Source: a virus. From it: a stretch of DNA of 64,000 nucleotides. The DNA lies in the IMG/VR virus record IMGVR_UViG_3300027784_000005, positions 1,121 through 65,120 of that record. One strand, written 5' to 3'. Below the pieces are notes generated by a model, which saw nothing but the letters and a program-made list of their open reading frames with translations, had not been told where the DNA came from and did not search any database. Both the position numbers and the translations under genes were made by a program. Numbering within the stretch: position 1 is the first letter of the stretch; every line of letters begins with the position of its first letter. Positions 1,271 to 47,419 of this stretch are shown piece by piece.

Positions 1271-2044
1271 ATGCCTAAGTATGGCCCCAAACCAGATATA
1301 GAAAAAGTATCTAATTATGAAGTCTATCAATTAGATAGAGATAAGAAAAGAATTAAACAGATTTGTGGGGTTCAAAGAAATAATGCTCCCGAGGGTTATG
1401 TTTGTTTAAAACCAGCTGGACACGGTACAAACCACCCCGGAACCGGTCCCTGTAAAGCCCATGACCGCCAGCTTATGAACCCTAATAATACCTCTCTCTG
1501 GCATAAGATGAATCGTTCTCAGAACTTACCGTCTACTTTAATGGAGTTTATGGAGAACGCAACAGAGATTGAGGAGACTCAATTGGCTATGGTTGATGAG
1601 GACATAAGGATGCTTTACGCTCTTCAATCCTATTTTTTAGAGAGTAAGTCAAAACCAGATAAGGATGGGAAAGAGAAAGAGTTGAGTTATGATGATATCG
1701 AATTATCTCTAAAGATTATAAATTCTATTATTTCTGCTAAAGAGAAAAGGGTTAAATTGAAGAAAGAGGTTGTATTAGATGCCTCAACAGTTAAAGTATT
1801 TGTAGATCAAGTTTTCAAGATAATTGTAGGTAATACAAATCAAGCACATTCTCGCAGGATATTAACGGAGATCCTTGATAATGTGATTATGCCATTCAAG
1901 CACTCCGGCCGTATTGCGGGACAAATTGATCTCACTAATGCCACTAAGAATATTGCAGAAGAGGTAGGGGTCAAGTCAAAAAAAGAAGATGACTCAGATT
2001 TTTGGGAAAATCTTGAGGATATAAAAGAGGATTACAATGGCTAG
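1271..2044 (+). CDS. terS: terminase small subunit
   Basis: CG...C...AGHGTNHPGTGPCKAH motif seen in phage TerS-like proteins; helical C-terminus; overlaps the TerL start. Confidence 0.65.
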   Translation: MPKYGPKPDIEKVSNYEVYQLDRDKKRIKQICGVQRNNAPEGYVCLKPAGHGTNHPGTGPCKAHDRQLMNPNNTSLWHKMNRSQNLPSTLMEFMENATEIEETQLAMVDEDIRMLYALQSYFLESKSKPDKDGKEKELSYDDIELSLKIINSIISAKEKRVKLKKEVVLDASTVKVFVDQVFKIIVGNTNQAHSRRILTEILDNVIMPFKHSGRIAGQIDLTNATKNIAEEVGVKSKKEDDSDFWENLEDIKEDYNG

Positions 2045-3308
2045 AACCCGTAAAAGAGATAAAGACTCAAATGTTGTAGATCAATGGGGTGCTATTAATC
2101 AACCCAATTCACATGAAGACCTAATTGCTGAACTGGGTGAGAAATGGATTGAAGATTATAAAAGCCAAGACACTGGTAGTCTTTATGATTGGAATGATTC
2201 AACTATCGAGGAGTTTAACAATATTCCGGTAGAGACTCTATTAATGGATCCATACTTTTTGAATCTTAAAGATATGGTATTTCCGGGAGTGTTAGATGAT
2301 ATATTAGAACTATGGGAGGAAAGAAGTAAGAGACAGGTTAATTTAACCTTATTTCTTCATGGAATAGGGGCGGGGAAGTCCATGGCTGCTAGCATCATAT
2401 CTTGGCTTTTAGTATATGAGTTATGTATGTATAAAAACCCGCAACAACATTTTGGATTAGCTGATAATTCAGTGATTGCGGTAATGCTTCTTTCAAGAAC
2501 CGAGACTCAAACCAGGAGGGTTATTTATAGTTATATGTGGGATAGGTTTCAATCTCAATTTAATAAAGATTACTTCCCCGTTAATCCAAAATTCTCTAGA
2601 GAGCTCAGGATTGATAGAAATAGGGTATGTGTTTATGCCGGTACAAGTTCAGCTTTAAGTGCTTTGGGATATAATGTTTATTGTTTAACAGGTGATACTG
2701 AGATTCAATTAGCTGATGGAAGTAATATTAGTTTACAAGAATTAGAAGGTTGTGGGAAATTAGATGTAAAAGGTTTTGATTTAAAATCTCAACAATTTGT
2801 AGGTACACAAGTTGAAGGGGTTGTTTGTAGTGGGGAGAAGGAAGTCTTTAAGTTAGAATTAGAAGATGGGTCTATTATAAAAGCTACTGAAGATCATCCT
2901 ATTTTAACTTATAAAAAAGTTAGAAGTAGAGAAAGACGTAGAGGGATTAAAGGGGGTTATATATTTAAATATAAGAAATTAAAAGATTTAACAGAGAAGG
3001 ACGAGATTGTTACTAAAAAGGATTTTATAAAATGTAGAATAACTGGGACTTTATTAACTCAAATTACTTATAAACACTTAAAAAATATAGGTTATACCTT
3101 TGATGGATATAAAAAGAAATTTCCAGATGCAGAGTTAGTTAGTCCTTTAATAAAAATGAGAATCGGTAAATTTTTAGAAGTTAAAGGTTATTTTAGAACT
3201 CCTAAGGCTAAGGAGAAATTTGAAACTGCTAATACTATAGCTGATGTTATGTTAGTAAGTAAAGAACAAATGAAAAACTTAGATTGTATAAGGGAGTATA
3301 TATCATGA
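2037..3308 (+). CDS. terL: terminase large subunit, ATPase N-part fused to N-intein (piece 1 of 3)
   Basis: Walker A GIGAGKS; at residue 216 the sequence switches to intein block A (CLTGDTEIQLADGS) and block B (IIKATEDHPIL). Confidence 0.9.
   Translation: MARTRKRDKDSNVVDQWGAINQPNSHEDLIAELGEKWIEDYKSQDTGSLYDWNDSTIEEFNNIPVETLLMDPYFLNLKDMVFPGVLDDILELWEERSKRQVNLTLFLHGIGAGKSMAASIISWLLVYELCMYKNPQQHFGLADNSVIAVMLLSRTETQTRRVIYSYMWDRFQSQFNKDYFPVNPKFSRELRIDRNRVCVYAGTSSALSALGYNVYCLTGDTEIQLADGSNISLQELEGCGKLDVKGFDLKSQQFVGTQVEGVVCSGEKEVFKLELEDGSIIKATEDHPILTYKKVRSRERRRGIKGGYIFKYKKLKDLTEKDEIVTKKDFIKCRITGTLLTQITYKHLKNIGYTFDGYKKKFPDAELVSPLIKMRIGKFLEVKGYFRTPKAKEKFETANTIADVMLVSKEQMKNLDCIREYIS
2682..3305 (+). other. 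N-terminal half of a split intein (IntN, 208 aa including a ~98-aa C-terminal extension)
   Basis: Cys1 at 2682 (TGT); block B TxxH (TEDH); ORF stops without the HN/S splice junction. Confidence 0.9.
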
Positions 3309-3409
3309 AGATAATATCGAAAAAAAGTTTAGGAAAACAGAAGGTTTATGATGCTATTAACTCCCAGACTAAAAATTTTATGCTTAATAATGGGGTTATT
3401 GTTCACAAT
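3305..3409 (+). other. C-terminal half of a split intein (IntC, 35 aa)
   Basis: Block F (KVYD) and block G (HN) followed by +1 Ser (TCG 3410-3412); length and basic charge resemble DnaE-type IntC. Confidence 0.9.
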
Positions 3410-3790
3410 TCGGGCGTCGTAGATGAAGCTAATTTTTTAGAAGTTATAGAGGATTCTAAAAAGAAAGGTTCTGGAGAAGTTTATGATGCGGCAGAGGAGA
3501 TGGAGAACGCTATTATGAATAGGATGACCTCAAGGTTTATGAGGGACGGAGTAATTCCTGGATTACTTTGTATGATATCTTCCCCACTATATCCCGATTC
3601 TTATATGGAAAGAAAAATTAAGCAAATAAAAGAAAAAGGGGAGGGTGTAATGAAGGCTTTTTATAGATCACGCTCTACTTGGGAGGCTAAGGGGGCCAGA
3701 TTCTTCCCCGATTTTTATGAGAGAGATGAATATATTGAGGTAGACTTAGAATCATTACAAATCATAAAAGAAAATATTAGGAGGGGATAA
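3305..3790 (+). CDS. terL: C-intein fused to the remainder of the terminase ATPase (piece 2 of 3)
   Basis: ATG at 3305 overlaps the upstream TGA (ATGA), AGGGAG RBS at 3291-3296; MKIISKKSLGKQKVYD...VIVHN/S then Walker B VVDEANF. The ORF-track start at 3284 (TTG) is probably too early. Confidence 0.9.
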   Translation: MKIISKKSLGKQKVYDAINSQTKNFMLNNGVIVHNSGVVDEANFLEVIEDSKKKGSGEVYDAAEEMENAIMNRMTSRFMRDGVIPGLLCMISSPLYPDSYMERKIKQIKEKGEGVMKAFYRSRSTWEAKGARFFPDFYERDEYIEVDLESLQIIKENIRRG

Positions 3791-3793
3791 GAT

Positions 3794-4288
3794 ATGAAGA
3801 AAAAGAGTTTTTGTGTATTAGATATTGAAACAATTGATTTTAAACCTCGAAGAGATCATATTTGGTCTATATCTATACTAAAGATTTCGGATATGGAAGT
3901 ATTTGAGGTTTTTGATTCTTTAGTTAGACCCCCCGCTGGCTTAGAGCAAAATTTTTATAGAGCTTCTGGTAAAGGACCCGTAGATTTTGAATATACTTAT
4001 AATATTGATAAGGTAGCTTCCAAAGCATATAACTTTATTAATAATGATATTGTCTATGCTTATAATGCTCCTTTTGATCACCGGTTCTTAGTCCTGGCCG
4101 ATACTAGATTTAAAAACTTACATTATAGAGATTATTTGAAGGTACTTAAAGATCGATATTCTAATTTAAGTAGTTATAAACTTAAAGAGGTAGCCAAAAT
4201 TTTTAATATTGATTATAAGAAAAATGGTTTTGTTAGTGTTGATGATTGTTATGCTTTATTTGAATTAATAAAAAAGGTGGGGTTATGA
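3794..4288 (+). CDS. DEDD-family 3'-5' exonuclease (DnaQ/epsilon-like)
   Basis: ExoI VLDIET, ExoII YNAPFD, ExoIII SVDD; the catalytic His is not evident. Confidence 0.8.
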   Translation: MKKKSFCVLDIETIDFKPRRDHIWSISILKISDMEVFEVFDSLVRPPAGLEQNFYRASGKGPVDFEYTYNIDKVASKAYNFINNDIVYAYNAPFDHRFLVLADTRFKNLHYRDYLKVLKDRYSNLSSYKLKEVAKIFNIDYKKNGFVSVDDCYALFELIKKVGL

Positions 4289-4833
4289 AATTCACATCAT
4301 TAATAAATTATCTCTTTTCTAAAAATTATATATCTATTGATAAGGAGTCAGAAGATAAAAAACAGACCCCTAGTGAGTTTGAATTAAGTAGACAAAGAGG
4401 TTTGCCTTTTAATATGTCAGAATTCATAAGGAGGCCAGATTTACCAGTTCCTGTTGAAGTTCAAGATAAAATCTTAGAATTTCATTTATATCCTTTGTCT
4501 TTTTTGAGGTGGGATATTGATTGCCCCATAATTATATCCCTTAGGTCAGCTTTTAGGCCCGTTGAACATGAGATAGAGAAGGGGAGGTCAGGTAATTCAG
4601 AGCATTGTTTTAAAGGATTAGGGGCCTCAGATATAACCTCTCCTCAGTTTAAAAAAATGGTCAAGAGGCTTCTAGATTTAGAGATATATGATCGTTTAAT
4701 ACTATATCCAGATAATAATTTTGTTCACGGGGATTATTCTGACGTAGGGGATAAATATGGTTTGAATTATGAAAGACAAGGTATTTCTTGGGTTAGTAAG
4801 GGGAGGTTTATTGAGGCTATAGATAGATTATGA
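4285..4833 (+). CDS. peptidase M15A-family zinc peptidase, probable endolysin
   Basis: SAFR...SEH...GLGASD...FVHGD matches the M15A pattern SxYR/SxH/AxD/HxD. Confidence 0.75.
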   Translation: MKFTSLINYLFSKNYISIDKESEDKKQTPSEFELSRQRGLPFNMSEFIRRPDLPVPVEVQDKILEFHLYPLSFLRWDIDCPIIISLRSAFRPVEHEIEKGRSGNSEHCFKGLGASDITSPQFKKMVKRLLDLEIYDRLILYPDNNFVHGDYSDVGDKYGLNYERQGISWVSKGRFIEAIDRL

Positions 4834-4834
4834 T

Positions 4835-5848
4835 ATGAGTGAACGTAAAACTATAAAAATCCCTTTATCTCTAAAGGCCAGGTTTTTATCTGATCCTGAG
4901 AATTTTATTCGTGATATTGCCGCGATTAGTACGGAAAGTATATCTCCTTTCTTCCGAAGAAAAGATAAATTAACTGAGTTATTAGAGAAATCCAAAGATC
5001 GATATAACCCTTTTGATGAAGATTCCCTTGTATTTGATGAAGATTTTGTTTGTAGAGATAATTTTACTCGTTATATGCACATTGACTTGGGTTTAAATAA
5101 AGATGCTGTTGGTATCAGTATGTGTCATATTCCCTTTTTCATGGATAGAGAAGATTGGATAACTGGGCCCGAGGGGTTGGAGAGGAATATCGATAGAGTT
5201 CCTTTTGTGAATTTTGATTTCATAGGGCGTATAAAAGCAGATAAGGGAGAGGAGATTATATTATCCGAAGTTAGACAGGTTATCTATGAGCTAACGAACT
5301 TGGGTTTTTATATTGATTTAATTACTTATGATGGATTTCAATCTGTAGAATCAATTCAAACTTTAAGAGCACAAGGGTATAGAGCTGCAAGGTTATCTGT
5401 AGATAGAACCTCTACAAAAGTATTATCTGTTAAATTGAAAGAAGATAAAACAGGTAAAAGTAATTATGGAATAAGAAGAGAGTCCACTGATGGTAATATC
5501 ATTGCTGCTTGGCAATCATTAAAAGAAGTGGTTTATGAGGATCGTATAGGGATGCCTTATTATGAGTGGGTTATTGAAGAAGCTAGGGGTCTTCAAGAAG
5601 ATCGTGTTAAACAAAAAATTGATCATAGGCCCAAAGGAACCTCTGATGTTATTCAATCTGTGTCAGGGTCTACTTTTAATGCAGTGGTTAATGAACAGGA
5701 GGGTCCCTATCATGATGTACAAGTTTATGCCCAAAAGACGGGGGATAATTTCTATAATCAATTAAATCCTTCTAAACCGGGTAATGATTTAATTAACGAG
5801 GATTGGGAGGATGATTTTGATCCGCAGGACAGAGAATATTTATATTGA
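4835..5848 (+). CDS. terL: terminase large subunit, RNase H-like nuclease domain (piece 3 of 3)
   Basis: FLSDPENFIRD linker, HIDLGLNKDAVGISMCH, ITYDGFQS, KIDH..KGTSD; lies directly before the portal gene. Confidence 0.85.
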   Translation: MSERKTIKIPLSLKARFLSDPENFIRDIAAISTESISPFFRRKDKLTELLEKSKDRYNPFDEDSLVFDEDFVCRDNFTRYMHIDLGLNKDAVGISMCHIPFFMDREDWITGPEGLERNIDRVPFVNFDFIGRIKADKGEEIILSEVRQVIYELTNLGFYIDLITYDGFQSVESIQTLRAQGYRAARLSVDRTSTKVLSVKLKEDKTGKSNYGIRRESTDGNIIAAWQSLKEVVYEDRIGMPYYEWVIEEARGLQEDRVKQKIDHRPKGTSDVIQSVSGSTFNAVVNEQEGPYHDVQVYAQKTGDNFYNQLNPSKPGNDLINEDWEDDFDPQDREYLY

Positions 5849-5868
5849 CATAAATCTATAAGGATATT

Positions 5869-7713
5869 ATGAATAAAATTTTCAAAAATATAAGAAGAAG
5901 GCTGGGATATTTCTCCTCTAAAGAGTTAGAGAAGACAGTAGATATTGCTGTCGATAAAGTTATCAACGAACACCGTATGTGGAAACAAAACGTTGATAAA
6001 GAATATGATTATTCTAATAGAAGAGAATCAGTGGCTGAGTCCCACGATGATAGGTTCTCCCTTTATGAGAGTCGCTATGAAACTAAGAAAAAAGGAAAAG
6101 ATGAAGAGGGTAAAGATTTTAGTATTATAGAATCTTTTACTGGCGGGTGGCACCCACAATTTGATACAGCCTATGATCAGTCGGTTGAGCAACTCCATAG
6201 GATGCAACAAGTTACCCTATCTAAATATTTCTCGGATCCACACTGTAGATCTATCATTGAGAATTGGCTTAACTATACTATCGGCGGAGGTATTCAGTTT
6301 AATATTGATAATGAGAAAGTTAAGAAAGTTGTTGATGATTTCCGTCGAAATAATGGTATGGAGAGTAGGGAGAAAGATATTGTTAAGATGTCTTTTATTG
6401 AAGGGGAGGTTTTCTTAGTTTATTATGTTTCAGCACGAGACGGAGACACAAAGATAAGGAGGATTCGTCCACAAGAGATAGCCGATATTGAAACTCACCC
6501 AGAAGATGTAGAAACTATATTCTCATATCATTGGTATTATACCGATTCTCGCCCCGGCACAACTCAATCATATTCAGTTGATTTAAGATTGGCTGATATA
6601 GAGTATGATAATTATAAACAAGAGTCTCAATCTAAAGGAGTTTTAAAAAGAAAAAATTCCCAGTATGAGCCCAGGTTAAAACGTAATACTGAGATTCAGT
6701 TTATTAAAATGGGTTTGGATAATGAATTAAGAGGTCGGGTTCCTTTACAACCGGTATTACGGTTTTTGAAATATTATGAAGATTGGTTAGTTGATAGAAT
6801 CATCCTTAATCATGAAAGATCAAAGGTTGTATGGATTAAATCAGTTAAAGGCCGAGGTCAAGGAGAGTGGGGTAAGAATTCAGGTGTTAGGGCTAGTAAG
6901 TCTCCGAAAGGTGGAGTCATGTTAGTTGAATCAGATAATGAAACCTATAGGATTGAGTCCCCCGAGCTAAATGCTAACGAGGCAAAAGAAGATGGGATGG
7001 CTATCCTCCATACTATTGGGGCTGGTTCTAATATGCCATTACATGTTCTTAATCAACGAGCAGACATGACCTCTTATGCTAGTATAAGAAAGTCTGATAC
7101 ACCATTCAGTCAGTTTATACGAGGTTCTCAACAATTCTTTAAACCAGAGTTTGAAAGAATGTATAGAGAGGTTATTGAAAATAAAGTTAAGGCTGGGAAA
7201 TTACCTAAGACTATTAGCGTATATGATTATTCTCAGGAAGATCTTAAAGTAGCCTTTGATATTATTAATGAGGGGTATTTAGAGAATAGACACATTGATA
7301 CTATTAAAGAAGAAGTTGATAAAGTATTAGACAGTAAACCAAAGAAGAGAAAGATAAAAACAGTTGATGTTCCACTTGGTATTGAATTCCCCGAAGTCCT
7401 CAGGGAAGACCTAAAAGCCCAGGCAGATGTCCTCAAGATCCATAAGGATATAGGTATTGCAAGTTTAGCCACTCTTGCAGCTAAGGCTGGTTATAATTGG
7501 AAAGAGGAATTACATAACAAAATGGTTGAAAAGGATTTCTTTAAACAGAATGATCCAGTAGATCCTAAGAAAGGTGATGAAGAGGATAATGGGGGAGATA
7601 AAAATGATGGCGAACCCAGTGGATCACAAGGAGATAAGGGGGATGATAAATCTCCCGGTCAAGGCGAGGACGGTGGAGAAGATAAAGGTTCTAAAAACGA
7701 TAAAAACGAATAG
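5869..7713 (+). CDS. portal protein
   Basis: 614 aa, follows TerL; portal-like segments (EGEVF, RGRVPLQPVL, YASIR); acidic Gly-rich C-tail. Confidence 0.8.
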   Translation: MNKIFKNIRRRLGYFSSKELEKTVDIAVDKVINEHRMWKQNVDKEYDYSNRRESVAESHDDRFSLYESRYETKKKGKDEEGKDFSIIESFTGGWHPQFDTAYDQSVEQLHRMQQVTLSKYFSDPHCRSIIENWLNYTIGGGIQFNIDNEKVKKVVDDFRRNNGMESREKDIVKMSFIEGEVFLVYYVSARDGDTKIRRIRPQEIADIETHPEDVETIFSYHWYYTDSRPGTTQSYSVDLRLADIEYDNYKQESQSKGVLKRKNSQYEPRLKRNTEIQFIKMGLDNELRGRVPLQPVLRFLKYYEDWLVDRIILNHERSKVVWIKSVKGRGQGEWGKNSGVRASKSPKGGVMLVESDNETYRIESPELNANEAKEDGMAILHTIGAGSNMPLHVLNQRADMTSYASIRKSDTPFSQFIRGSQQFFKPEFERMYREVIENKVKAGKLPKTISVYDYSQEDLKVAFDIINEGYLENRHIDTIKEEVDKVLDSKPKKRKIKTVDVPLGIEFPEVLREDLKAQADVLKIHKDIGIASLATLAAKAGYNWKEELHNKMVEKDFFKQNDPVDPKKGDEEDNGGDKNDGEPSGSQGDKGDDKSPGQGEDGGEDKGSKNDKNE

Positions 7714-43702: not shown

Positions 43703-46700
43703 TTAAATAGTTTCTTTTGTTTGTTTTTCTCTTAGAATTTTGAGTCTATAATTAATTGTTTTTGGATGAACGTTATATTCAATATTATCCCAACCCCATC
43801 TTTTTAAGAATACTTCCGGCTCTGCAATCAATGGGAGATTAAAGGGCTTAGGAGTTAATTCCATTAATTCTTTAACCTCTCCTACTAAATGTATTTCATC
43901 TTTATGAAATTCAAAAATCAAAGCATCATGTACATTCAATAAGAAATGTGATTTAGCTTTTTTCTTTCTCAACATTTTATGTGCTTTGATTGCCCCTAAT
44001 TGAGTGATATCTGAGGCTGTACTCTGAATAATAGCATTAAGGCCTTCCCTTAAAGCCTCGGCTTGTTTATCCTCATCAGGAGATAAAATTTGAGGTAACC
44101 TCCTTATTCTACCAAAACAATTTTCTACGTAGCCATATTGTTGTATAAATCTATGAATCTTTTTGATAAATTGATCTACTCCTTTATATAATTTGAAAAA
44201 CTCTCTACGAAAATGTTGCATTTCTTCAATAGTGGGTATGTCGTCTTCATCCCCCGATTTTTCCTTAATACCAGCTAAAGCGCGTTTTGCTGAATTATGT
44301 ACTGAGAAGTGATTTACTGTATAATAGGGTTCTTCATTTACTGTTAAATCATATACTTTTTTAACTCCTATCTCTTTAGATTCAACTAGCCTAGTCATAT
44401 AATGATTATCATTAATGATTGATAAATTATACTCCTTAGTTTTTCCATTTTTTGCTGTATGTTTCTTTTTATATAAAAACCCTATATCTAGTAAGAATTT
44501 ATCAATGTGATAAGTTATGATTTGTAATCTGTTTTTCTTTATTTTACTAACTATACCCCAATTAGTTAACATCTCTTGAAGGTCCTTTAATAATCGGGGG
44601 GACATTGATTTATAAGAAATCCCCCCTCTAGTACTAATAGAGCCATCCCCCTCAAAAATAGCTTGTAAAAAGGTTTTTTGAAATTCTTTTGGACTATTTT
44701 TTATCCAATCGGGGATATATTTATTATGTGACCTATCATTACCTTTTTCCATTAATTCCATAAACCATTCACACATGATTATGGAGGTTATATATAATGT
44801 TCTACTACGAGGTATTGGGTTACCCTGTAGATCCTTTTTAATTACCTTTTTACCCTCAGTATTTTTTCTGCGTATGTATTTATCTTTATCTGATAATGTA
44901 ATATGGTCTTCTGGGAATATGTTTTTACTTACTTCAACTATTTTATCCCAAAATTTATCACTTTTATTTGTGTAACCTTGACATATATTTAAACCATGGT
45001 AGAAATTTCTACGGAGTGGTTGTGGTAATCTAACCGACCCCTCAGATAACCAAGCTCCCATAAATGTAGCTAAATCTTGAGTCATGTATTTTGGAGGTTG
45101 CCAATCAACCTTTTTATATTTCATATTCCCCAAATCAACCTTAGGTAATTTATTATCTTCCCCAAAAACTTGGGTGTTATATACTTTTATAACGGGCTCA
45201 CCGATTTTTATATCCCCAATAGATTTAAACCCTAATACAGATTGAATTTCATGATTAGGCGTACAAGTAAGAGTAGACCCATCAGAGAATGTATATTCTT
45301 TAACTAATCTTTCCCCGTTTTTATGCAATTGTTCAACTTCGAATTCCCCTTTATAGTTTATAACCTTATCCCCTTTTTTAATGTCTTGGATATATTTATA
45401 TCCTTTATTGGTTAATACTTTAGAAAATTCAGGAAAACACCCCCCATAGATAAAGCCGAAGTTTACTAACTTAGCTCTCTTTCTTTCCCATTTTGTAACT
45501 TCATGAGGTTTCTTTTTAAAGATAAAACAAGCTGTAGTAAGGTGGACATCCCCTCCTTCTTGATATACTTTTAATAAAACTGGGTCCTGAGAGTAATAAC
45601 TCATCACTCTAAGTTCAACCTGTGAAAAGTCTATCTCTACTGGGTAATAATTTGGATCAGCTGTAAACATCCCTTTTATTTTCTTTTCCCTGGGGATATT
45701 TTGAAGATTGGGATTTTTTGAAGAGGTTCTACCTGTTACAGTACCATGTAACAGGAAATCATTGTGGATACGATCATTATAATCTACTTTATCAATAAAA
45801 GGACGGAGATAGGTTGTTAAAGCTTTATTAAAACCCCTGTATTCAAGTATATGATTTACAATCTTAATATTCTCTGAATTTTTGGGTATCTCTTTTAATA
45901 CCCCTTCAGAGGTAGATGGTTGACTGGTTTCAGTATAACCCATTACAGGTAGTTTTAATTCTTTATATAAAACCTGTTGAAGTTGAGGGGTAGAGTTGAG
46001 ATTGAATTCTTTACCTGCAACTTTAAATACCTCTTTTAAATGCTTAGCTTCTTCAATTTCATATTCTTTGATTGTATTTTTAACGTAAGGTACATCAATC
46101 TTTGTTCCCCTCATTTCAGCATCAGCATATACTCTTGTTAAAGGCATATAGAAATGAAATAATAATCTCTTTAGATTGGGAGTTAATTCTTTATAAAAAT
46201 CTCTAGCTAATCTTAATGTTAGATCACAGTCTATACAACAGTATCTACCTAATACGGGTAGAGGGATATCTCCGAAGGTTGATTCTTCTTCTTTTTTCTT
46301 AGTTAAATATTTATCTAATTCTTCATCGTAACCCCTGTATTCTGGGTATTTTTGATTAATTACAACTTTTAATCCATGCTTCTTATTCTCATCTAGGATA
46401 TAATGGGCTAACATAGTATCCATCCAAAGATTGGGAATTCTAATATTAAAATGATACTCACACATTTTTGTATCAAATTTGATATTATGGGCTATCTTCT
46501 TGGGTTTTTTAGCTAATAACACCATCTTAATTAATCTAAAAACCTCTTCATCTTCATCTCCCCAATAACTATAATAATCATCATCAAAACTTGAAACATT
46601 TGGTTCTTCATATAAAGAATCATCTTTTTTAACCATGAGGGGGATATAAACCCCCGTTTTTGGTTTCAAAGAAAAACCAATACCCAATAAGTGATGTTTC

Positions 46701-47419
46701 CAAAAAACATTACCCGTAGTTTCAACGTCAAAAGAATAATGTTTAGCTTCTATAGCTTTTTCAGCAAAAGATCTAACATCAGCTAAGTTGTCTAATACTG
46801 TATAATTACCTTTTATCTTTTTTGTTTTATAGCTCCCTGATAAAATCCCTTTCAGAGTCTTAAAGTCATAATCAAATTCTTCTTTATACTGAGGTGTTCT
46901 TATAATATAAGCTGGATGATACATGGGGAGTAATTTTACTCCATACGTTTCATCATTGATTACCCTACCGTGGTTTTTTGTAATACCGCCTTTTAATTTA
47001 AATCTTTCACAAGAGCCCGTGCCTAAAAGGACAATAGCCTTTGGTTTAGTGTGCTGTATTATAGCATCTAAGTTTTCAGCACAATGTTTTTGTTCTTTCT
47101 TTTTGGGCTTTCTATCTTTGACTTGACCCGATATGGGGTCAATATTCTCTGGCCTACAAGCTACGGTATTACATAAGGCAAAATTTGTAATCCCAAACTC
47201 ATGGATTGTTTTTTGTAATAATTTCCCGGCTCTTCCTTGAAATACCTTCCCTATTCTCTTTTCTTGACCACCAGGTGCTTCCCCAACAAATAATACCTCA
47301 CAATTGTCTAGGTCTCCCCAATAGTTATGGGGATTATAGCTTTGTTCACAATACAAGGGGCAATCATCGCAATTTGATAAAGGTAACGATATCTCACCTT
47401 TTTTTATTTTCTTCGACAT
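43703..47419 (-). CDS. polA: family A DNA polymerase with an N-terminal uracil-DNA glycosylase domain, 3'-5' exonuclease and an intein
   Basis: UDG family 4 motifs (CxxC, VGEAPG, GRAG, YHPA); exonuclease FDVET, HNIKFD, YCCIDCD; motifs A DFSQVELR, B RKRAKLVNFGFIYG, C VHDA. Confidence 0.95.
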   Translation of the reverse strand: MSKKIKKGEISLPLSNCDDCPLYCEQSYNPHNYWGDLDNCEVLFVGEAPGGQEKRIGKVFQGRAGKLLQKTIHEFGITNFALCNTVACRPENIDPISGQVKDRKPKKKEQKHCAENLDAIIQHTKPKAIVLLGTGSCERFKLKGGITKNHGRVINDETYGVKLLPMYHPAYIIRTPQYKEEFDYDFKTLKGILSGSYKTKKIKGNYTVLDNLADVRSFAEKAIEAKHYSFDVETTGNVFWKHHLLGIGFSLKPKTGVYIPLMVKKDDSLYEEPNVSSFDDDYYSYWGDEDEEVFRLIKMVLLAKKPKKIAHNIKFDTKMCEYHFNIRIPNLWMDTMLAHYILDENKKHGLKVVINQKYPEYRGYDEELDKYLTKKKEEESTFGDIPLPVLGRYCCIDCDLTLRLARDFYKELTPNLKRLLFHFYMPLTRVYADAEMRGTKIDVPYVKNTIKEYEIEEAKHLKEVFKVAGKEFNLNSTPQLQQVLYKELKLPVMGYTETSQPSTSEGVLKEIPKNSENIKIVNHILEYRGFNKALTTYLRPFIDKVDYNDRIHNDFLLHGTVTGRTSSKNPNLQNIPREKKIKGMFTADPNYYPVEIDFSQVELRVMSYYSQDPVLLKVYQEGGDVHLTTACFIFKKKPHEVTKWERKRAKLVNFGFIYGGCFPEFSKVLTNKGYKYIQDIKKGDKVINYKGEFEVEQLHKNGERLVKEYTFSDGSTLTCTPNHEIQSVLGFKSIGDIKIGEPVIKVYNTQVFGEDNKLPKVDLGNMKYKKVDWQPPKYMTQDLATFMGAWLSEGSVRLPQPLRRNFYHGLNICQGYTNKSDKFWDKIVEVSKNIFPEDHITLSDKDKYIRRKNTEGKKVIKKDLQGNPIPRSRTLYITSIIMCEWFMELMEKGNDRSHNKYIPDWIKNSPKEFQKTFLQAIFEGDGSISTRGGISYKSMSPRLLKDLQEMLTNWGIVSKIKKNRLQIITYHIDKFLLDIGFLYKKKHTAKNGKTKEYNLSIINDNHYMTRLVESKEIGVKKVYDLTVNEEPYYTVNHFSVHNSAKRALAGIKEKSGDEDDIPTIEEMQHFRREFFKLYKGVDQFIKKIHRFIQQYGYVENCFGRIRRLPQILSPDEDKQAEALREGLNAIIQSTASDITQLGAIKAHKMLRKKKAKSHFLLNVHDALIFEFHKDEIHLVGEVKELMELTPKPFNLPLIAEPEVFLKRWGWDNIEYNVHPKTINYRLKILREKQTKETI
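44294..45439 (-). mobile_element. contiguous intein with a LAGLIDADG homing endonuclease in polA (382 aa)
   Basis: YGG/CFPEFSKVLT ... FSVHN/SAKR; block B TPNH; LAGLIDADG blocks FMGAWLSEGS and LQAIFEGDGS. Confidence 0.95.

Follow-up and report, generated by a model that had tools for sequence, protein, structure and literature searches.

In the canonical large terminases (TerL; T4 gp17, G20c/P74-26, D6E, HK97 and Sf6 gp2), an ASCE ATPase and an RNase H-like nuclease with three acidic residues lie on one chain. In the soda-lake phage record IMGVR_UViG_3300027784_000005 of IMG/VR, of which positions 1,121 to 65,120 were analyzed as a window of 64,000 nucleotides (all positions below are those of the window unless a locus is named), the same domains occur in the same order with the portal gene adjoining, and are collinear with 650–680-aa members of the family, but they are encoded about 1 kb apart as two polypeptides, cut about 34 residues before the domain boundary. 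The ATPase is itself encoded in two open reading frames (ORFs; pieces 1 and 2), and the nuclease (piece 3) has a gene of its own at 4835–5848 (+ strand, 337 aa, own ATG). The question raised by this locus is whether the parts are rejoined into one chain or work as separate subunits. The core of the original prediction, a separately translated nuclease with neither intron nor intein at the junction and with pieces collinear with one homologue, was upheld, and it is probable that the sole large terminase of this phage is made natively from separate genes, the arm of the nuclease most likely docking on the ATPase to give a heterodimer.

For piece 3, searches of Pfam and PHROGs gave no match, and the terminase models PF03237 and PF17289 had no match across the whole genome, the family having diverged too far for them to detect. 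A tblastn search against 50,697 phage records returned 341 matches, which, among the matches listed, nearly all fell under terminase-annotated genes; the best was about 31% identical, and no cultured representative was found among these records. Three of the phage genes were inspected, and all encode one chain: those of Gordonia phage Sombrero (657 aa, annotated as terminase, with the nuclease match covering about residues 308–616), Maribacter phage Molly (669 aa, annotated as terminase) and Aeromonas phage HJ05 (652 aa, unannotated). An AlphaFold2 (AF2) model of the nuclease, built on 28 homologues with a predicted local distance difference test score (pLDDT) of 81, aligned with T4 gp17 353–561 at Z 15.6 (root-mean-square deviation 2.8, 189 residues), and with the G20c nuclease, D6E, HK97 TerL and P74-26 at Z 15.5, 15.3, 14.9 and 14.3, while RuvC and Cas9 RuvC domains ranked far lower (Z about 7.9 or less); Foldseek concurred with the assignment to the TerL nuclease fold. 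Residues D84 (5084–5086), D166 (5330–5332) and D271 (5645–5647) were invariant in the 28 nuclease sequences, and the protein contains the motif IPLSLKARFLSDPENFIRD. By its model, the product of 4835–5848 is a TerL nuclease with an RNase H-like fold and three metal-binding acidic residues. Residues 291–337 were modeled at pLDDT below 50, and this acidic and aromatic tail is a candidate portal-binding element. For the ATPase, the presence of Walker A in piece 1 and Walker B in piece 2 identifies an ASCE P-loop ATPase, and the G-x-G-K and D-E of these motifs were invariant in 16 ATPases. No second terminase was found in the 67,622-bp genome (CheckV, 100% complete), in which the search returned these three pieces only.

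The pieces aligned to the terminases of Sombrero and Molly and to the HJ05 homologue, and comparison with intact TerLs, which the original prediction had proposed as a check, placed all three in line on single homologues. Pieces 1, 2 and 3 matched residues 108–169, 209–313 and 354–607 of the HJ05 protein, and residues 20–213, 212–337 and 340–669 of the fused metagenomic TerL P0055. On a second metagenomic TerL, P0061 (662 aa), piece 2 residues 36–156 of 161 matched 204–325 and piece 3 residues 1–307 matched 331–630, so that P0061 326–330 correspond to the last five residues of piece 2 and piece 3 begins at P0061 331; with five residues left over on each side, nothing has been lost or duplicated at the junction. 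Structural alignments to solved TerLs began at residues 32–38 of the nuclease model, which puts the cut about 34 residues upstream of the crystallized nuclease boundary (G20c 255, T4 gp17 353). Piece 2 ends in ...ENIRRG with a TAA stop at 3788–3790, two further genes follow, and a new ATG opens the nuclease gene at 4835, so a single chain is not encoded here, nor in 24 relatives.

The wider family was sampled by a word-indexed search for the nuclease, which gave 52 clusters (185–590 aa, most 311–362 aa, 32–75% identity), and by an exhaustive HMMER search, which gave 2124 matches at E ≤ 0.001 and 72 at E ≤ 1e-30, the best of them mostly 300–380 aa long and aligned from their residue 3–20. Among 196 nuclease homologues collected, 120 were stand-alone and 51 fused. 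DNA was examined for 48 IMG/VR loci and for contigs from other collections; the search for related loci was built on a 13-row alignment, and the 28-row alignment held no conserved stretch. Wherever the nuclease was at least 34% identical, a separate ATPase ORF lay upstream on the same strand (24 of 24 distinct loci), at a distance of 499–2572 nt. Of 22 loci checked, nearly all had an ATG 2–8 codons ahead of the conserved N-terminal arm motif IP.ELK..FLRDPENF and an in-frame stop 15–110 nt upstream of the nuclease start, and most ATPase ORFs ended 1–6 residues past a conserved D.D.LEI.KE motif. Judged by these loci, the split is an old, conserved and clade-wide design. The original prediction had the nuclease domain displaced by two passenger genes, a description that does not stand, because the split is ancient and common to every relative examined.

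In the mechanism that we favor, the two ATPase parts are expected to be ligated by a split intein, and the N-terminal arm of the nuclease (a strand and two helices) would structurally belong to the ATPase module. The arm would dock back on the C-terminal strands of the ATPase by strand pairing, rebuilding a TerL-like heterodimer, while the flexible hinge and the nuclease fold would stay on one chain. For structure prediction of the complex, another check proposed with the original prediction, the intein-free ATPase (2533–3546 of its locus) and the nuclease (4603–5616) of a related locus (L007, nuclease 75% identical to that of the window) were used. The L007 pair docked in the model, a result that supports binding without showing it, scoring 0.65 where the best of three controls scored 0.00; runs agreed in at least 71% of contacts, and pLDDT of the partner was at least 78. 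The predicted interface joins nuclease residues 4–35 with ATPase residues 104–109, 269–278 and 298–334, and physical association of the two proteins through the arm is what we infer from this model.

Several points weigh against this reading. Of 80 solved complexes, 58 attained a score of 0.65, as did 2 of 110 mismatched pairs, but our own unpaired alignments were used, so these calibration counts hold only roughly, and solved one-chain TerLs remembered by the model may account for the score. No good ribosome-binding site lies near the nuclease start, so that the gene is probably translated by coupling to the one before it. In a quick maximum-likelihood tree of 129 nuclease domains, one side held 70 stand-alone and 11 fused forms, and the other held 38 fused and 10 stand-alone forms, although gene-call fragments may account for some of the short rows scored as stand-alone within the fused clade. 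The window nuclease belongs to a clade of 18 rows, all of them stand-alone, and fused forms at 39–45% identity were nested among split ones. The tree requires no fewer than 4 changes of state, and parsimony gives 14, so fusion and fission have recurred; on this tree the two states interconvert, and the ancestor could have been either stand-alone or fused.

The strongest rival holds that the nuclease is free-standing and forms no stable complex with the ATPase, being brought in transiently by the portal, the small terminase or the DNA to make the cuts with which packaging begins and ends, while translocation is left to an ATPase-only ring as in phi29. The occurrence of separate chains in over 100 homologues is compatible with such an enzyme, the long low-confidence C-terminal tail could bind the portal alone, and phi29-type motors translocate without an active nuclease. 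Against this rival, the conserved arm has no role within the nuclease fold, and its pairing with the C-terminal strands of the ATPase is predicted with low error; moreover, the cut has removed no residue that fused homologues possess, as a rebuilding of their architecture would predict. We therefore regard a free-standing nuclease as unlikely.

That the halves are rejoined into one TerL chain, by a group I or group II intron, by trans-splicing or by ribosomal bypass, is very improbable at this locus, even though other phages do have intron-split terL genes whose splicing is borne out by RNA reads (PMC12880540). An Rfam scan of 1500–6500 at E ≤ 1 gave two chance snoRNA matches only and no intron family. 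The 1044-nt gap between ATPase and nuclease is fully coding, consisting of two ORFs with ribosome-binding sites, and relatives keep both the nuclease ATG and the in-frame stop upstream of it. The content of the gap varies among relatives while its ends stay fixed. The statement in the original prediction that the gap is not an intron thus agrees with the lack of an Rfam intron match, with the coding gap and with the conserved ATG, and its statement that neither end has intein motifs agrees with a Pfam search, in which no Hint motif and no Intein_splicing match were found at the junction. The ends themselves, ...IRRG for piece 2 and MSERK for piece 3, carry no extra residues compared with fused homologues. 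Ribosomal bypass was rejected because a 1-kb gap is far beyond known bypassing. A homing-endonuclease cassette was also rejected: no homing endonuclease gene (HNH, GIY-YIG, LAGLIDADG or similar) was found in the gap by Pfam, and the gap genes match RNase_T/RNase_H_2 and Peptidase_M15_3 only.

That the split is an artefact of chimeric assembly or of a frameshift in sequencing, or the decay of a defective phage with a broken terminase, is the least credible explanation, close to negligible. The record is a metagenomic contig, classed by IMG/VR as linear and with no end repeats found, but 24 distinct loci from many samples share its layout, and the genome is rated complete with no other terminase. 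Positions 3000–6000 are also covered with zero differences by a Logan contig of 18,909 nt, which was built by a different assembler and probably derives from the same sample. The chimeric assembly that the original prediction had allowed for is countered by this spanning contig and by the shared arrangement of the 24 loci. Near-identical pieces of 229–303 nt were present in two soda-lake runs from other years. A pseudogene was rejected on intact catalytic residues and on low nonsynonymous divergence (dN) in both halves; dN was 0.14–0.25 between the window and relatives 69–75% identical to it, with synonymous sites saturated, so that the ratio to synonymous divergence (dS) supports only the statement that dN is much lower than dS.

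Among known systems, the canonical one-chain TerL is the closest. There is a likeness also to phage genes in pieces, such as nrdA of Aeromonas phage Aeh1, split by mobE, and the T4 topoisomerase genes 39 and 60. There, too, an essential enzyme is made in two separately translated parts that presumably assemble non-covalently, with foreign genes between them. Those splits were made by mobile elements and are confined to few strains, whereas the gap described here holds no homing endonuclease, its occupants being a DEDD exonuclease and a lysin, and the split is old and common to a very large clade. In phi29, gp16 carries a vestigial nuclease-like domain on the ATPase chain, and there is no cutting subunit; as here, no working nuclease is attached to the motor ATPase, but in the present phage an intact nuclease is kept as a separate gene. 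For the P2-type terminase, the subunit names hint at an ATPase and a nuclease on different proteins, but gpP is a full two-domain TerL and gpM its small-subunit partner, so this would be no fission of TerL. The wording 'ATPase subunit' for gpP and 'endonuclease subunit' for gpM appears in PMC3091744. Interrupted terL genes are represented by the Jug phages, with an intron-split terL (PMC12880540), and by Mic1, whose TerL carries two inteins (PMC7156551), and bypassing has been proposed for Streptomyces phage Hau3. The Jug and Mic1 genes resemble the ATPase part here, with its split intein, but they are restored by RNA or protein splicing, whereas the ATPase/nuclease junction here has no ribozyme or Hint motif, so nothing restores a single chain. 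No natural two-gene ATPase/nuclease terminase was described in the literature searched, of which coverage was incomplete.

Models of the packaging motor in tailed phages and herpesviruses differ on whether the ATPase and nuclease domains must move against each other on one chain for force to be generated, and on which domain holds the portal. A clade in which the two domains lie on separate chains, with a defined cut and a short docking arm, is a natural test system for these models, and the position of the cut suggests where model terminases could be split. Marker-gene pipelines built around a single TerL protein will mis-measure or miss these phages. The fixed gap is also a late-operon slot with interchanging lysin families, useful for finding endolysins in uncultured phages.

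Six co-directional ORFs on the + strand form the terminase block (ORF list; Table 1), in which the order given in the original prediction, piece 2, exonuclease, M15 peptidase and nuclease gene, was recovered, and the portal gene lies directly downstream of the nuclease gene, as in relatives.

Table 1. Features of the terminase locus, in window positions.
Feature	Positions	Strand	Evidence
TerL ATPase N-part (aa 1–214, Walker A GIGAGKS) and N-part of putative split intein	2037..3308	+	ORF, Pfam Intein_splicing 225–295
35-aa putative intein C-part (ends VHN/S) and TerL ATPase C-part (Walker B VVDEANF)	3305..3790	+	Pfam Intein_splicing, homologue matches
DEDD (DnaQ/RNase T-type) 3'-5' exonuclease, 164 aa	3794..4288	+	PF00929, phrog_192, PDB 2p1j
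Peptidase_M15_3-like (LAS-type) protein, probable endolysin, 182 aa	4285..4833	+	PF08291 (weak), phrog_894, ESM Atlas
N-terminal arm of nuclease subunit, aa 1–34	4835..4936	+	structural alignments, predicted interface, conserved motif
RNase H-like TerL nuclease fold, aa 35–290	4937..5704	+	AF2 model, structural matches, invariant residues
Acidic/aromatic C-terminal tail, aa 291–337, and stop codon	5705..5848	+	low-confidence model region
Portal protein	5869..7713	+	PF05133 2.2e-9; phrog_10963 2.3e-16; same synteny in L003, L005

From piece 2 through the exonuclease and the M15-like gene to the nuclease, the intergenic distances are 3, −4 and 1 nt. The start of piece 2 overlaps the preceding stop by ATGA, with an AGGGAG site upstream; the exonuclease ATG lies 3 nt past the piece 2 stop and is preceded by an AGGAGG site; the exonuclease and M15-like genes overlap by ATGA; and the nuclease ATG is one base past the TGA of the M15-like gene. 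The suggestion in the original prediction that cutting and translocation could be regulated separately is unsupported, and the layout speaks against separate control at the transcriptional level, since the four genes are packed in one direction into a single block and are coupled in translation. Upstream, a 257-aa ORF at 1271–2044 overlaps the ATPase start by 8 nt, at the place where a small terminase subunit would be expected, and had no significant Pfam or PHROG match.

A putative natural split intein cuts the ATPase gene at 2680–3409. Its N-part starts with CLTGDTEI at aa 215, runs to the TGA at 3306–3308, and has about 100 extra residues without an assigned fold; its C-part starts at the ATG at 3305 (ATGA overlap), matches positions 123–155 of the Pfam Intein_splicing profile, and ends just before Walker B. 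Trans-splicing of this intein would join the two ATPase parts. The tripartite terminase of the original prediction, with one spliced and one non-covalent junction, thus fits the sequence in its coding (split intein in the ATPase and non-covalent junction to the nuclease), with trans-splicing as the part that we only infer. Other inteins were seen in the family. In the ATPases of L003, L008, L030 and L038 the inteins are contiguous and sit at another position, close to the P-loop, being of LAGLIDADG type at least in L003; the ATPases of L007 and L005 have none. An insertion of about 340 aa lies inside the stand-alone nuclease gene of L036 (1329–3335 of that locus), P0053 and P0031; the P0031 copy carries Hint/Intein_splicing domains, so the insertion is probably an intein, and inteins would then target both halves of the terminase.

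The exonuclease in the gap matched PF00929 (2.4e-13), phrog_192 (3.3e-16) and the PolC exonuclease structure PDB 2p1j (2.6e-10). All four DEDD acidic residues are present in the window protein; D10, E12 and D151 were invariant among relatives and D95 nearly so. The ExoIII histidine (HRAxxD in most relatives) is replaced by Phe in the window and L007 and by Tyr in L003 and L008, and exonuclease activity may be altered by this replacement. By clustering and a hidden Markov model built from the exonuclease, the gene was present in the gap of 20 of the 24 distinct loci. In L031 (1971–2531 of that locus), a 499-nt gap holds the exonuclease alone, overlapping the nuclease start, in a minimal ATPase-exonuclease-nuclease arrangement. 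The fused relatives P0055 and P0061 have TerL followed by the portal gene, with neither exonuclease nor lysin between. Elsewhere in the window, a 1238-aa ORF at 43703–47419 (− strand) encodes a family A DNA polymerase together with a UDG-like domain and a 3'-5' exonuclease domain, and a LAGLIDADG intein at about residues 676–1042 interrupts its polymerase domain. Since the polymerase has its own 3'-5' exonuclease domain, the gap exonuclease is not needed as a proofreader. Its presence in 20 of 24 gaps, its place as sole gap gene in L031 and its dispensability for proofreading led us to consider the exonuclease as a third working part in packaging and maturation, trimming DNA ends cut by the terminase nuclease, so that ATPase, exonuclease and nuclease would make up a functional module of three genes, a role that is conceivable though doubtful.

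For the M15-like protein, the PF08291 match was weak (0.022; 15.3 bits against a Pfam cut-off of 23.2), the PHROG endolysin family phrog_894 matched at 1.3e-7, and in the ESM Atlas (feature score 0.95, structure TM 0.83) the neighbours were nearly all Peptidase_M15_3; the sequence shows SEHCFKGLGASD and VHGD. It had no PDB sequence match, a word-indexed search returned no homologue but itself, and its single-sequence AF2 model (pLDDT 48.6) was too poor to use. The second gap position is a peptidoglycan hydrolase (Amidase_2, GH108 or M15) in at least 16 of the 24 loci. The family at this position changes, with Amidase_2 in the three closest relatives (L003, L007 and L008), GH108 with PG_binding_3 in 12 loci, the M15_3-like protein in the window, a weak M15_4 match in L005 and DUF5675 in L025. 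By its gene content across these loci, the gap is one near-constant exonuclease and one exchangeable peptidoglycan-hydrolase slot inside the late operon. Other occasional occupants were a GT11 glycosyltransferase, a radical-SAM protein and a DnaG primase, the last in L040 (7343–8989 of that locus), where a full DnaG-type primase (CHC2 zinc finger and Toprim) stands between the terminase genes and the nuclease is 34% identical to that of the window. After the GH108 lysin, a conserved ORF of 75–79 aa without a Pfam match was present in eight loci (L026, at 5531–5758 of that locus, L013, L018, L022, L027–L029 and L041), and could encode a holin-like partner.

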